Positions 10,346 to 42,723 of a stretch of DNA of 64,000 nt are shown in pieces (positions within the stretch are counted from its first letter, which is position 1; each line of letters opens with the position of its first letter). Location: NCBI RefSeq assembly GCF_056746865.1, contig NZ_CM163382.1. The stretch is one strand, 5' to 3'. Made by a program: the position numbers and the translations under genes. The notes beneath the pieces were generated by a model. It saw only the letters and a program-made list of their open reading frames with translations, was not told the DNA's origin and ran no database searches.

Positions 10346-10777
10346 ATGTCATTTACTGATATCTATCAGATTTCCGGCTCGGCGATGACGGCGCAAACCA
10401 TTCGTCTGAATACCGTTGCCAGTAACCTGGCGAATGCCAATGCACCTGCCGGCAGCGAGGCGCAGGCGTATAAAGCGCGCAGCCCGGTGTTTGCGGCGGT
10501 GTATCACCACAGCTTGCTGGCGGGAACGCATCGTCATGCCATTGATGGTGCCAGCGTGCAGGTGCAGGACGTGCTGCAAACCGGCGGGGCGGTGAAACGC
10601 TATGAACCGCATTCGCCGCTGGCGGATGCTAACGGGGATGTCTGGTATCCCGACGTCAACGTGGTGGAACAGATGGCGGACATGATGTCGGCCTCGCGCG
10701 ATTTTGAAACCAACGTCGATGTGCTCAACAACGTGAAAAGTATGCAGCAAAGCCTGCTGAAACTGGGAGAAGCCTGA
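10346..10777 (+). CDS. lfgC: Flagellar proximal rod protein FlgC
   Basis: 143 aa with the SNLANANAP rod motif. The frame is intact. Confidence 0.85.
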   Translation: MSFTDIYQISGSAMTAQTIRLNTVASNLANANAPAGSEAQAYKARSPVFAAVYHHSLLAGTHRHAIDGASVQVQDVLQTGGAVKRYEPHSPLADANGDVWYPDVNVVEQMADMMSASRDFETNVDVLNNVKSMQQSLLKLGEA

Positions 10778-19335: not shown

Positions 19336-20313
19336 ATGCAGGTCGGACTTACATCTTCGTCACTCGCCACCGGCGGCGCGCATAGCGCTGCGGTATCGTC
19401 GTCAACCGTTGCGCCCACTCAGGCGGTGCGGCAAAAACTCCCGGCGACGGCGAGTGAATATCCGGCCTCGCCGCTGATTACCACTCGCCCGCAGCGTTAC
19501 AGCGTGCAGCTTAACGACCAGCTCACCACGTTGCAGCAGGCGGATCACTATCTCGGGCAACTGGAGCAGCAGTTGCTCGATTATCGTCACAGCCAGCGCA
19601 AAGGCGGGCAGGCGCAGAGTTCGGCGCTGATGCAGATGCTGGACAAACGCACCGCGCTTTCCGGCGGTGCGGTGGACCGCCAGTTGCAGCCAGTGTTGCA
19701 GGGGGAAGCGCGGGTGACTTTTCACTCGCCGGATCTGGCGAATCTGGTACACAATCCCACGCCGGGAACGCGCATGTTCAGCGTCTCTGACGGGCGGCAG
19801 ACTCAGCTTTCGGCGGTGATGCTGTCTGAGGATGACAGCGCTGGGCAGTACCAGACGCGGCTGACCAACGCCCTGCGCCGCGTGGGCGTGCAGATGCATC
19901 AAAACGCCGATGGTATAAGTTTCTCCACCACTGAAAAACAGTGGCCCAACATTGAAAGCACCCTAAGCGTGCGCACCGATGGTGATAAATCAGCGTTTAT
20001 GCCACTAAAAACCTTTGCCGAACCGTCGCAGGCGGACCGCTTAGTGCAAAGCCTGCAACAGGGCGGAGCGGGGATTTCTCAGACGTTAGAAAGCATTAAT
20101 CAGCAGCGTGTGCAGATGGCGGTACAGCAGGAAAAGGCGCGGCAGTTGATCGACGGCATGTCGCGCTTCCCGCAAACGGAAAGCGCCGTGCAGGCGTCGG
20201 AAAATCTCGGCGGCGTGCTGGATAGCGCCAATCATAACTATCAGGTTTTATTGCAGGCGGTGAACGGTCAGGCGCGAATTTCCAGCCAGACGGTGAGGAG
20301 TTTATTGGGTTAG
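19336..20313 (+). CDS. lafW: Flag-2-specific protein of unknown function (position of lafW)
   Basis: 325 aa with a Ser/Ala/Thr-rich N-terminus, located between flgL and the regulator/flagellin genes. Function is not evident from sequence. Confidence 0.5.
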   Translation: MQVGLTSSSLATGGAHSAAVSSSTVAPTQAVRQKLPATASEYPASPLITTRPQRYSVQLNDQLTTLQQADHYLGQLEQQLLDYRHSQRKGGQAQSSALMQMLDKRTALSGGAVDRQLQPVLQGEARVTFHSPDLANLVHNPTPGTRMFSVSDGRQTQLSAVMLSEDDSAGQYQTRLTNALRRVGVQMHQNADGISFSTTEKQWPNIESTLSVRTDGDKSAFMPLKTFAEPSQADRLVQSLQQGGAGISQTLESINQQRVQMAVQQEKARQLIDGMSRFPQTESAVQASENLGGVLDSANHNYQVLLQAVNGQARISSQTVRSLLG

Positions 20314-20334
20314 GGTTATTGTCATTGTTGCTTT

Positions 20335-20378
20335 TATAGCTATTAAGCTATAGTTTATCTATAGCATAAAAGCTATGA
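20335..20378. promoter_or_regulatory. Two inverted repeats (TATAGC...GCTATA) upstream of the toxin gene; candidate toxin-antitoxin operator
   Basis: TATAGCTATTAAGCTATA and CTATAGCATAAAAGCTATG lie immediately upstream of a GAGGGA ribosome-binding site and the ATG at 20386. Confidence 0.5.
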
Positions 20379-20385
20379 GGGACCG

Positions 20386-20730
20386 ATGATGTGGGACGTC
20401 GAGACAACGGAGACTTTCGACAACTGGTTTGATGCCCAGACTGTTGCGCTGAAAGAAGATTTACTTGCTGCAATGCTGATTCTTGCTGAGTATGGCCCAC
20501 AGTTGGGCAGACCCTTTGCGGATACGGTTAATGATTCACAGTTTTCAAATATGAAAGAATTACGCGTCCAACATCAGGGAAACCCGGTACGTGCTTTTTT
20601 TGCTTTCGATCCTGCGCGCCGTGGCATTGTATTATGTGCGGGTGATAAAACGGGGTTAAATGAGAAAAAGTTTTATCGCGATATGATCAAGCTCGCTGAT
20701 TCTGAATACCGTAAGCATCTGAAAAAGTAA
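20386..20730 (+). CDS. Type II toxin, RelE/ParE superfamily (HigB-like 'addiction module killer' family)
   Basis: 114 aa with a C-terminal GIVLCAGDK...KKFYRDMIKLAD region reminiscent of HigB-like killer proteins. It lies 9 nt upstream of a small HTH gene, and the toxin-first order is typical of higBA. Confidence 0.7.
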   Translation: MMWDVETTETFDNWFDAQTVALKEDLLAAMLILAEYGPQLGRPFADTVNDSQFSNMKELRVQHQGNPVRAFFAFDPARRGIVLCAGDKTGLNEKKFYRDMIKLADSEYRKHLKK

Positions 20731-20739
20731 GGAACGATA

Positions 20740-21039
20740 ATGGCTACTCTAAAAGAACTGATGGCAAAGCAAAGCCCTGAAAGCCAGGTGCGTATTGCGG
20801 CAAAAGTTGAGGAAATGCGCCAGACCATCGCCTTGCATCAGCTGAGAGAAGAACTCAATATTTCGCAAACGGAAATGGCGGCAGCGATGGGCATTAAGCA
20901 ACCGACTCTTGCAAAAATGGAGCAGGCAGATAACGATCCTCGGTTGTCTACGCTAAAACGCTATGTTGCGGCTTTAGGTGGGGAATTGAGTATCGACGTT
21001 AAACTGCCGAATGGTAAGAGAATTGCATTTCAGATTTAA
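20740..21039 (+). CDS. Type II antitoxin, XRE/HigA-family helix-turn-helix protein
   Basis: 99 aa with an HTH motif (ISQTEMAAAMGIKQPTLAKME), tightly coupled to the upstream toxin gene. Confidence 0.75.
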   Translation: MATLKELMAKQSPESQVRIAAKVEEMRQTIALHQLREELNISQTEMAAAMGIKQPTLAKMEQADNDPRLSTLKRYVAALGGELSIDVKLPNGKRIAFQI

Positions 21040-21096
21040 TTTTGGGGTGCATTTTATGAACCGGATTAGATAAAACGGTATCTAATCCGGTAAACA

Positions 21097-21990
21097 TCAG
21101 CATTTCTGCACAGTATTTAACAACTTCTCTAAATTCTGATACATCGCGCTATTAATATCGCTATTCTGCCAGCTATCCACATTAAAAGTTAATTGCCAGC
21201 TACCGTTGCACTGGTTGCGCAGAACAATATCACTCTCCAGTCGGTTACGAACATATTTATAATAGGTTGTCATTGTCATATTATGCGCTGACAATAAATT
21301 ATCGAGTTTGTCTTTTCCTGGTGCGAGGGTTTGTGACAGTAACGGTACGGAATTATTTTCCTTTCCAGAACTAAGATGAAATATTTTTATTCTTGGACTG
21401 TTAATTGACTCTTTTACCAGTTGCGGGGCGTCAGGTGTACTTTTCAAGTGTGAATACCCCACGGTTGAGCCAACCAATATAACAGCTGCGGCCAACGCTA
21501 ACCCCATCAGTCCTTTATGTTTTTTTCTAACAGGCACATACGGTGTTGTCGAAGATATCTCTTCTGGGGCTGTATCCTGTATCTGGTCGGTAATAATCAG
21601 CGCTTCTGCAGGCGATGACTCCGGCAAAGACACATACTCTTTATTGCATAAGTAACCTTTCTTCGGAATTGTTTTAATAATGTTCTGTTGTTTGCCATCA
21701 TCGTCGATAGCAACGCGCAACGCATGGATCGCCGTCGGCAGGCTGTTTCCGCCGACAATACGGTTCTTCCATACTTCGGCACATAAATAAGATCGCGATA
21801 AAACCACATCGGCATTTTTTGCTAATGTTTCCAGCAAAATAAAATGGTATTCGCCGAGACGACGTGTTTCACCCGTTTCGCAATGTATTAAGGCATTAAG
21901 CGACGGGTCCATCCGCCAGTTGTTGATAATAATACTCATAGTTGAGTTTACCTTAGCAAGGGATAAATGTTTCCTGATAGTGCTTTGCAT
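21097..21990 (-). CDS. lafZ: Membrane-anchored ToxR/CadC-like transcriptional regulator (position of lafZ)
   Basis: 297 aa with an N-terminal winged-helix OmpR/CadC-type DNA-binding region, a single TM helix (GLMGLALAAAVILVGSTVGY) and a periplasmic C-terminal domain. The gene is AT-rich relative to its flanks. Confidence 0.6.
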   Translation of the reverse strand: MQSTIRKHLSLAKVNSTMSIIINNWRMDPSLNALIHCETGETRRLGEYHFILLETLAKNADVVLSRSYLCAEVWKNRIVGGNSLPTAIHALRVAIDDDGKQQNIIKTIPKKGYLCNKEYVSLPESSPAEALIITDQIQDTAPEEISSTTPYVPVRKKHKGLMGLALAAAVILVGSTVGYSHLKSTPDAPQLVKESINSPRIKIFHLSSGKENNSVPLLSQTLAPGKDKLDNLLSAHNMTMTTYYKYVRNRLESDIVLRNQCNGSWQLTFNVDSWQNSDINSAMYQNLEKLLNTVQKC

Positions 21991-22424
21991 AAAGCACAGT
22001 CTTATACGTCCCTGAGAAGATGATTTTTCTGCGTGATAATTAATATTTTATGGTGATAAGATTATTCTTAATCACTATATAGCGTGGAAATGTAACGAAA
22101 TGACAGGACAGGTACAATAGCCAAATGTGTACTATTTGCAACGCAATGTAAATTTTGGCATCAGTACATTGAGAACAAAACGCGATAATTGATGACAATC
22201 TTAACTATATCAAGCGTTTGATAAAGACATATTTTGATACCTGGCCATGTGGCAGATATTGCTAATAATCTTTTTATCTGAATTTAAACTCTGCTTTTTT
22301 TAGCTAAAAGTGGCATCGGATAATACGTGGCGAAAAAATTTTAACGGCGATTTTAAGTTTGCTCCTGAGGTGTCGTTTTTACAGGGTATCGAAACGAAAA
22401 CGATTAATCCCAAGGAGCAGTATC

Positions 22425-42647: not shown

Positions 42648-42723
42648 GCCGATATAGCTCAGTTGGTAGAGCAGCGCATTCGTAATGCGAAGGTCGGAGG
42701 TTCGACTCCTCTTATCGGCACCA
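42648..42723 (+). tRNA. thrW: tRNA-Thr (anticodon CGU)
   Basis: GCCGATATAGCTCAGTTGGTAGAGCAGCGCATTCGTAATGCGAAGGTCGGAGGTTCGACTCCTCTTATCGGCACCA: cloverleaf, T-loop GGTTCGA, encoded CCA end. Confidence 0.92.

Follow-up and report, generated by a model that had tools for sequence, protein, structure and literature searches.

We describe a two-gene toxin-antitoxin (TA) cassette that lies between lafW and lafZ in the Flag-2 (lateral flagella) locus of Escherichia coli, within a 64,000-nucleotide stretch of contig NZ_CM163382.1 (NCBI RefSeq assembly GCF_056746865.1; the window). E. coli strain 118UI was 100% identical to the window over the stretch tested. The cassette is very probably a horizontally acquired type II TA module of the Gp49 (PF05973) "HigBA / Tad-Ata" kind, carried in the interval VR2 of Flag-2. 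Flag-2 was first described in E. coli 042, and the pair has been mentioned in that strain (Archer et al. 2011, PMC3032704). The lafW-lafZ interval is known as VR2, a hotspot for cargo genes in 478 of 592 flag-2 loci (De Maayer et al. 2020, PMC6993521), and the accession numbers cited there for LafW (CAH19144) and LafZ (CAH19147) skip two numbers, consistent with two genes between them. A pair at this position is thus ordinary, already known, and in print; added here, as increments, are its exact family, a 60% identity link to a proven toxin, operator covariation, insertion junctions, allele frequencies, and a decayed relic.

The toxin gene comes first and is separated by 9 nt (GGAACGATA) from the antitoxin gene. 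The ribosome-binding site of the latter (AAGGAA), kept in orthologues, shares bases with the stop codon of the toxin gene. Two small, adjacent, co-oriented genes 9 nt apart, one for a toxin-family protein and one for a DNA-binding protein, form the arrangement of a type II TA system, and RefSeq labels the products a type II RelE/ParE-family toxin and a helix-turn-helix (HTH) protein. The original prediction, made from the DNA letters alone, had described a 114-amino-acid (aa) toxin and a 99-aa antitoxin in this order and with this spacer; all of it stands except the toxin length, which is likely 113 aa. The longest open reading frame of the toxin (20386..20730) has 114 codons, but the ATG at 20389 is the likelier start because a ribosome-binding site (GAGGGA, 20378-20383) lies 5 nt from it, because RefSeq annotates it, and because the Klebsiella and Citrobacter orthologues are 113 aa long and do not conserve the upstream ATG. 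The convergent lafZ gene ends at 21097.

The toxin matched Pfam Gp49 over nearly the full model (E = 1.4e-20, model positions 1 to 89 of 90) and PHROG 3445, annotated "toxin" (2e-22); the precomputed Pfam labels of its homologues were all PF05973, a family with 2,477 representatives at E ≤ 1e-3. NCBIfam gave no family for it, and searches of the PDB by sequence, with the toxin alone or as a 69-sequence profile, gave no meaningful match, so that the link to solved toxins came only through a fold search. An AlphaFold2 model built from the 69-sequence alignment (predicted local distance difference test score [pLDDT], 97.2) had two N-terminal helices, a four-stranded sheet (residues 44-46, 56-62, 65-73, and 78-86), and a long C-terminal helix (92-112). 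Its best Foldseek matches were HigB of Streptococcus pneumoniae (6AF3/6AF4; template modeling [TM] score, about 0.65), with Vibrio cholerae HigB2 (5JAA), Pyrococcus horikoshii RelE (1WMI), Mycobacterium tuberculosis RelE1, and ParE2 as further neighbors. The modeled fold is that of RelE/ParE toxins (RelE-like BECR) with a long C-terminal helix. The toxin keeps each of the 14 positions that are near-invariant in the family (L32, G36, L39, P42, E57, L58, R59, R68, F73, R77, L82, K87, Y96, and A103). Compared with their Klebsiella and Citrobacter orthologues, both genes had a proportion of nonsynonymous differences (pN) of about 0.09 to 0.10 and a proportion of synonymous differences (pS) of 0.74 to 0.80 (saturated); by this comparison, toxin and antitoxin are therefore under strong purifying selection. 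The toxin (20389-20727) also matched about 100 residues at the C terminus of NsnC, a PADLOC protein (E = 1.6e-7); a Gp49-like domain is thus fused into this candidate defense protein.

The antitoxin matched Pfam HTH_3 (2e-12, residues 32 to 83). Its best PDB matches were M. tuberculosis HigA3 (6LTY, 2e-8) and HigA2 (7EWC, 2.8e-8), and it also matched a chain of 6AF3 named "HigA antitoxin" (5e-6); against NCBIfam, it matched only HTH families, below threshold. The profile searches thus placed both proteins in families. The description "HigB/HigA-like" in the original prediction holds for a RelE/ParE-type toxin with an XRE-HTH antitoxin, and needs narrowing in one respect: the canonical HigB families PF05015 and PF09907 were absent among the Pfam matches of the toxin at E ≤ 10, so the label is correct only if HigB is understood as Gp49/Tad-Ata. 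The name "gp49/tad/HigB1/HigB3" is given to family PF05973, which is toxin-first, degrades mRNA in a ribosome-dependent manner, and is distinct from canonical HigB (PF05015, PF09907) and from V. cholerae HigB2 (PF06296) (PMC11980606, Table 1). The toxin-first order is typical of the Gp49 family (PMC5906591, PMC11980606), and the window pair shows it, together with an XRE-type HTH antitoxin. V. cholerae HigB2/HigA2 was considered as the closest family and rejected, as its toxin belongs to PF06296 and not PF05973 (PMC11980606, Table 1).

Coordinates of the cassette and of the features around it are given below.

Table 1. Features at the lafW-lafZ interval (positions in the window)
Feature	Position	Strand	Description
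lafW	19336..20313		Upstream neighbor, co-oriented with the pair
Whole cassette, ~717 bp	20323..21039	+	Promoter/operator, toxin, and antitoxin, with no further content; left edge ± a few bases
Predicted sigma-70 promoter	20328..20354	+	-35 TTGCTT (20328-20333), 15-nt spacer, -10 TATAGT (20349-20354)
Operator palindrome O1 (predicted)	20335..20352		TATAGC-tattaa-GCTATA, perfect; spans promoter spacer and -10 box
Operator palindrome O2 (predicted)	20360..20377		TATAGC-ataaaa-GCTATG, one mismatch; between -10 box and ribosome-binding site
Toxin gene (113 aa + stop)	20389..20730	+	Gp49-type HigB / Tad-like RelE-superfamily toxin, identical to WP_000263532.1
Antitoxin gene (99 aa + stop)	20740..21039	+	XRE/HTH_3 HigA-like repressor, WP_000212552.1
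Right junction	21040..21059		Diverged second copy of lafW 3' end, TTTTGGGGTGCATTTTATGA; empty allele TTATTGGGGTAATTATCA
Hairpin	21060..21091		Perfect 13-bp stem, ACCGGATTAGATA-aaacgg-TATCTAATCCGGT; between convergent higA and lafZ; fold z = -6.3 for 21020-21110

Two palindromes precede the toxin gene. The pattern ATAGC-N6-GCTAT occurred twice in the window, both times at the pair, against 0.03 expected, and none of 100 shuffles contained it two or more times. Upstream regions of 110 nt were compared among nine members of the family (E. coli, Klebsiella, and Citrobacter chromosomes; Salmonella, Morganella, Klebsiella, IncC, and Acinetobacter plasmids; and a Yersinia phage), and all shared one layout, in which a TTGnnn -35 box is directly followed by palindrome 1, and palindrome 2 lies just 5' of the ribosome-binding site. 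The right half of palindrome 1 forms a TATAAT-like -10 box, 15 nt from the -35 box; the eight relatives have TTGAAA, TTGCAA, or TTGATT, then 15 nt, then TATAAT or TATATT. The promoter predicted in the window rests on this comparison. O2 covers the probable transcription start.

Across the nine members, the outer TATA/TATA is invariant, and the inner two bases of the half-sites covary on both arms at fixed positions (GC/GC, AT/AT, GG/CC, and AC/GT). Half-sites are TATAGC/GCTATA in E. coli, Klebsiella, Citrobacter, and the Salmonella plasmid; TATAAT/ATTATA in the Klebsiella and Morganella plasmids; TATAGG/CCTATA in the IncC plasmid; and TATAAC/GTTATA in the Acinetobacter plasmid and the Yersinia phage. 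The N6 spacer varies between Klebsiella, Citrobacter, and the Salmonella plasmid while the half-sites are kept. Symmetric covariation around a free spacer carries the signature of an operator for a dimeric HTH protein with lineage-specific recognition, and the palindromes are strongly predicted to be an autoregulatory operator, as had been proposed when they were first noticed; the sequence evidence for that proposal is strong. Elsewhere in the window, there was no further operator-like site; the sole match with two mismatches lay in the D-arm of a tRNA-Thr gene and is a false match. That gene, tRNA-Thr (CGU; 42648-42723), is the only tRNA in the window.

The distribution of the pair was surveyed in 5,426 complete E. 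coli genomes, 1,275 of which contain lafW-lafZ. The cassette was present in 71 of these, always single-copy, chromosomal, at the same site, and at least 99% identical; about 94% of lafW-lafZ genomes lack the pair. Most other genomes carry an "empty" allele, a 58-bp spacer made up of a palindromic hairpin that we read as of the repetitive extragenic palindromic (REP) type. Eight species-representative genomes had a LafW relative, one of them a metagenome-assembled genome (MAG) labeled "Citrobacter sp." (LafW 96% identical) that holds a relic of the cassette. The other seven loci, labeled as other species or genera, had no cassette, and six of these were empty with a 56- to 62-bp spacer (Escherichia whittamii, two unnamed Escherichia, and three Pseudocitrobacter). 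The empty state is accordingly read from these sequences as ancestral, since the other-species loci lack the cassette, and the pair was inserted at the stop codon of lafW in a single E. coli lineage, to which 042 belongs. The pair is hence limited to a minority of strains and is not a universal core component of the flagellar locus. The seventh locus, from Citrobacter amalonaticus (L020, 7006-7530), has an unrelated 529-bp insert in the lafW-lafZ interval with no similarity to the TA cassette, another VR2 cargo. Two lafW-lafZ matches in the E. coli collection were on records labeled plasmids.

The TA-bearing genomes are mostly one clone, with ~55 of them 100% identical over 24.9 kb, a few at 99.4 to 99.5%, and 042 at 98.4%. 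Over window positions 8500-33400, some otherwise 100%-identical genomes (for example, NZ_CP058574, NZ_CP043406, and NZ_CP095083) match in two pieces and are 0.8 to 1.2 kb longer, which suggests insertion sequence (IS) insertions within Flag-2 of the TA-bearing clone.

Similarity to the Klebsiella and Citrobacter cassettes runs from ~20328 to the antitoxin stop codon and ends there; the mobile unit would therefore be the promoter and the two genes and nothing else. The LafW C terminus (...LLG) is kept in the TA allele. On the right, the flank TTTTGGGGTGCATTTTATGA-ACCGG aligns to the stretch of the empty allele where lafW ends and the hairpin starts, AATTTATTGGGGTAATTATCA-GCCGG (0 of 2,000 shuffles were as good), and has no similarity to cassettes of other genera. 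From these alignments we infer an imperfect duplication, with ~14 nt of target on both sides of the insert. An ungapped repeat finder found no clean direct repeat flanking the insert, and the left and right junctions compared directly were not significantly similar; the duplication is visible only through the similarity of each junction to the empty site. The hairpin beyond the right junction, likely a bidirectional terminator, replaces the palindromic hairpin of the empty allele (GCCGGATAAGACGCGTTTAGCGTCGCATCCGGC; L001, 2484-2516), with similar ends. In E. coli 042, rayT, a REP-associated tyrosine transposase gene, adjoins the lfhA end of Flag-2 (L012, 13747-14244), which is of interest since the insertion site of the cassette abuts a REP-like hairpin.

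In 47 complete E. coli genomes (for example, AREA_C483; L003, 2479-2781), as in the MAG (L013, 6979-7281), the insertion site is occupied by a third allele of ~250 bp. It retains the final codons of a Gp49-type toxin gene, a ribosome-binding site, the first ~20 antitoxin codons (MATLKQLMDKQSPES...), and the usual REP-like hairpin; most of the toxin gene is gone, with its 3' end alone left, and the antitoxin-like open reading frame is truncated to 47 aa. The antitoxin start is ~85% identical in DNA to the window cassette over the first 60 nt and degenerate thereafter. Relic and intact alleles agree at the left junction (TTAG-GGTTATTG), and both have the duplicated lafW end. Two histories would account for this: decay of a single old insertion in some lineages, or two hits on the site in like manner.

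The acquisition of the pair is concluded from this variable presence and absence across genomes, not from base composition. The G+C content of the cassette is 44.5%, compared with 59.5% for lafW, 41.9% for lafZ, 34.7% for the lafZ-lafA spacer, and 53.1% for the whole window. The original prediction had taken the AT-richness of the pair relative to its flagellar neighbors as a sign of later acquisition; the difference from lafW and the later insertion are both upheld, but A+T-richness is not diagnostic. Composition was rejected as proof of acquisition, as the core flagellar gene lafZ is at least as A+T-rich. Both lafZ and the lafZ-lafA spacer (21097-22420) are more A+T-rich than the cassette, though lafZ is conserved in Flag-2. 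In Pseudocitrobacter, LafZ identity falls to 63 to 66%, next to a LafW at 93 to 95%, which suggests fast evolution or replacement of the lafZ regulator. RefSeq names for LafW itself vary by genome ("hypothetical protein," "flagellar biosynthesis protein FlhF," and "flagellar hook-associated protein"), and it matched no NCBIfam model.

Outside E. coli, the most similar relatives (83% aa identity) lie between yicN (DUF1198) and a major facilitator superfamily (MFS) transporter gene in Klebsiella and Citrobacter. Relatives were also found on 1,982 plasmid records (tblastn of plasmids) and on phages. The toxin is 60% identical over its full length to HigB of the IncC plasmid pEc158 (KY887596), with antitoxins at 40%, and homologues on Acinetobacter plasmids have about 58% toxin identity. 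The pEc158 pair is toxic and acts as an addiction module, its toxin being a ribosome-dependent endoribonuclease whose activity is abolished by the substitution G64V (Qi et al. 2021, PMC8265657); G64 of the IncC toxin aligns with G64 of the window toxin. In the HigBA2 system of Acinetobacter baumannii, HigA was shown to repress its own operon, HigB acting as co-repressor (Armalyte et al. 2018, PMC5906591). By analogy with these systems, the window toxin is likely toxic.

We propose that a single promoter would drive higB and then higA on one transcript. A dimer of the 99-aa HigA would bind both TATAGC-N6-GCTATA palindromes through its HTH domain, and its presence at the -10 box and the probable transcription start would repress the operon, probably with the toxin as co-repressor. 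HigA would also bind and neutralize the 113-aa HigB. If labile HigA were not replenished, free HigB would enter the ribosomal A site and cleave mRNA, and growth would stop. We regard a selfish addiction module as most likely, or else a module for general stress or phage defense, in either case with no dedicated flagellar role.

Several points weigh against this interpretation. Toxin residues E57, R59, R68, and K87 presumably correspond to E66, R68, R77, and K95 of M. tuberculosis HigB-TAC, an equivalence taken from a by-eye alignment to HigB-TAC. Those four HigB-TAC residues are catalytic (PMC9098466). Two other Gp49 toxins of M. tuberculosis, HigB2 and HigB3, are non-toxic (PMC9098466), so family membership does not guarantee toxicity. 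A sigma-70 and terminator consensus scan found no promoter upstream of the toxin, because the spacer is short (15 nt), and the predicted promoter combines this unusual spacer with weak -35 and -10 hexamers. The same type of scan recognized no terminator in the 75-nt gap between lafW and higB, so that flagellar read-through is possible. The count of 71 genomes says little about independent retention because one clone dominates it.

The original prediction had also offered two flagellar roles for the pair, and neither the operator scan of the window, the contexts of relatives, nor the genome survey revealed a link to flagella. A coupling of motility to stress, in which HigA or read-through from lfgKL-lafW ties the TA pair to Flag-2 expression or HigA controls lafZ or lafA, is very improbable. 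The pair is co-oriented with lafW across that terminator-free gap, and the hairpin found after lafW in empty alleles has been displaced to the far side of the cassette, as such a coupling would allow; but toxin transcribed together with its antitoxin would not be freed by that alone, and orthologous cassettes work in non-flagellar contexts, the closest relatives being at non-flagellar sites and on plasmids. Control of other Flag-2 promoters by HigA was rejected, as the window has no other operator-like site beyond the two-mismatch match in the tRNA-Thr gene. The other role, stabilization of the locus, supposes that en-bloc deletion of Flag-2, as in K-12-like strains, would lose higBA and leave stable toxin to poison the cell. 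Because the homologous IncC pair is an addiction module (PMC8265657), this is possible in principle; for Flag-2 it is speculation, and we consider it unlikely. It would fit the retention of lafW-lafZ in 71 of 71 TA-bearing genomes, the conservation of the surrounding 24.9 kb in the best-matching genomes, some with the extra 0.8 to 1.2 kb (probably IS), and the persistence of the locus in 042 despite a frameshifted lfgC (PMC2808357). Retention in what is largely one clone is of little weight, however, and ~1,200 of the 1,275 genomes as well as the outgroup species keep lafW-lafZ without the pair, matches over at least 80% of the surrounding 24.9 kb were seen in 1,211 genomes, and the relic allele records a cassette that decays while Flag-2 persists. 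A joint reading, in which the cassette is an addiction guard of the 40-kb Flag-2 island that biases 042 and the clonal lineage against the en-bloc deletion found in most E. coli, and in which Gp49-type cassettes without a recombinase land preferentially at the lafW 3' end by the REP-like hairpin, is a long shot; its second half draws on the junction and ~14-nt target duplication shared by intact and decayed cassettes, which hint at an unrecognized insertion mechanism for minimal TA cassettes.

Two further readings concern what the toxin does. Abortive infection, in which phage shut-off of host transcription would free HigB and translation would stop before the phage cycle ends, is improbable as the specific role. 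RelE/ParE-superfamily proteins are discussed as defense toxins (PMC11980606), the C-terminal domain of NsnC in PADLOC resembles the toxin, and relatives occur on phages and plasmids; yet the two proteins together correspond to no PADLOC system, the matches being this domain and generic HTH models, and no defense genes adjoin the pair. That HigB, like HigB2 and HigB3 of M. tuberculosis, has lost useful RNase activity, and that the pair is kept mainly as an HTH regulator with its partner, is a decidedly poor prospect. The closest PDB relatives of the antitoxin are the partners of those non-toxic proteins, HigA3 and HigA2 (PMC9098466), but the toxin has a far nearer relative in IncC HigB, which is toxic (60% identity), keeps G64 and all near-invariant residues, and appears to be under strong purifying selection, and the relic, with the toxin 3' end only, shows a decay pattern that would be expected of a harmful toxin.

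A selfish cassette, or one for general stress or phage defense, probably without a flagellar role, thus describes the pair best, and its import beyond correct annotation is small, as it is a routine member of a large, experimentally characterized TA family. For specialists, the correct family name is Gp49/Tad-Ata-type HigBA, not canonical HigBA. The symmetric switching of half-sites could guide work on antitoxin specificity and cross-talk, and the three allelic states of VR2 (empty, intact, and decayed) illustrate in nature how a TA cassette arises and decays. Stabilization by TA systems is established for integrons and mobile elements; stabilization of Flag-2, if true, would be a chromosomal example of that concept.

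Among known systems, the Flag-2 pair of E. coli 042 (WP_000263532.1 and WP_000212551.1) occupies the same lafW-lafZ position, with an identical toxin and a single substitution (V17A) in the antitoxin, so that the pairs do not differ in substance. The strains differ in lfgC (flgC of Flag-2; window 10346-10777), frameshifted in 042 and intact in the window, and Flag-2 may be functional in the strain of the window given the intact gene. IncC HigBA (tad-ata of pEc158) likewise has a Gp49-type toxin first and an XRE antitoxin second, keeps G64, and has two TATAG...CTATA palindromes overlapping the promoter. It differs in lying on a plasmid backbone where the window pair is chromosomal, in its half-sites (TATAGG versus TATAGC), in the distance between palindrome starts (16 bp versus 25 bp in the window), and in toxin length (116 aa versus 113 aa); the activity of the window pair would follow by analogy. 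HigBA2 of A. baumannii pAB120 is of the same family and has the paired-palindrome upstream layout (TATAAC-N6-GTTATA), with another half-site sequence and another host; the locus compared here (L025) is an A. baumannii plasmid homologue and not necessarily pAB120. With the HigB-TAC/HigA1, HigBA2, and HigBA3 systems of M. tuberculosis, the pair shares an antitoxin whose best PDB matches are HigA3 and HigA2 and a toxin modeled with a RelE-like fold and a long C-terminal helix, a helix described for the M. tuberculosis Gp49 group (PMC9098466). No SecB-like chaperone gene is present with the window pair, and its toxin is too dissimilar for a profile-to-PDB match. Canonical HigBA (Rts1/Proteus vulgaris HigB and E. 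coli YgjN-YgjM) and V. cholerae HigB2, a structural neighbor of the window toxin, share the toxin-first order, the RelE-superfamily fold, and an XRE antitoxin, but belong to PF05015/PF09907 and, for V. cholerae HigB2, to PF06296, none of which the window toxin matches.

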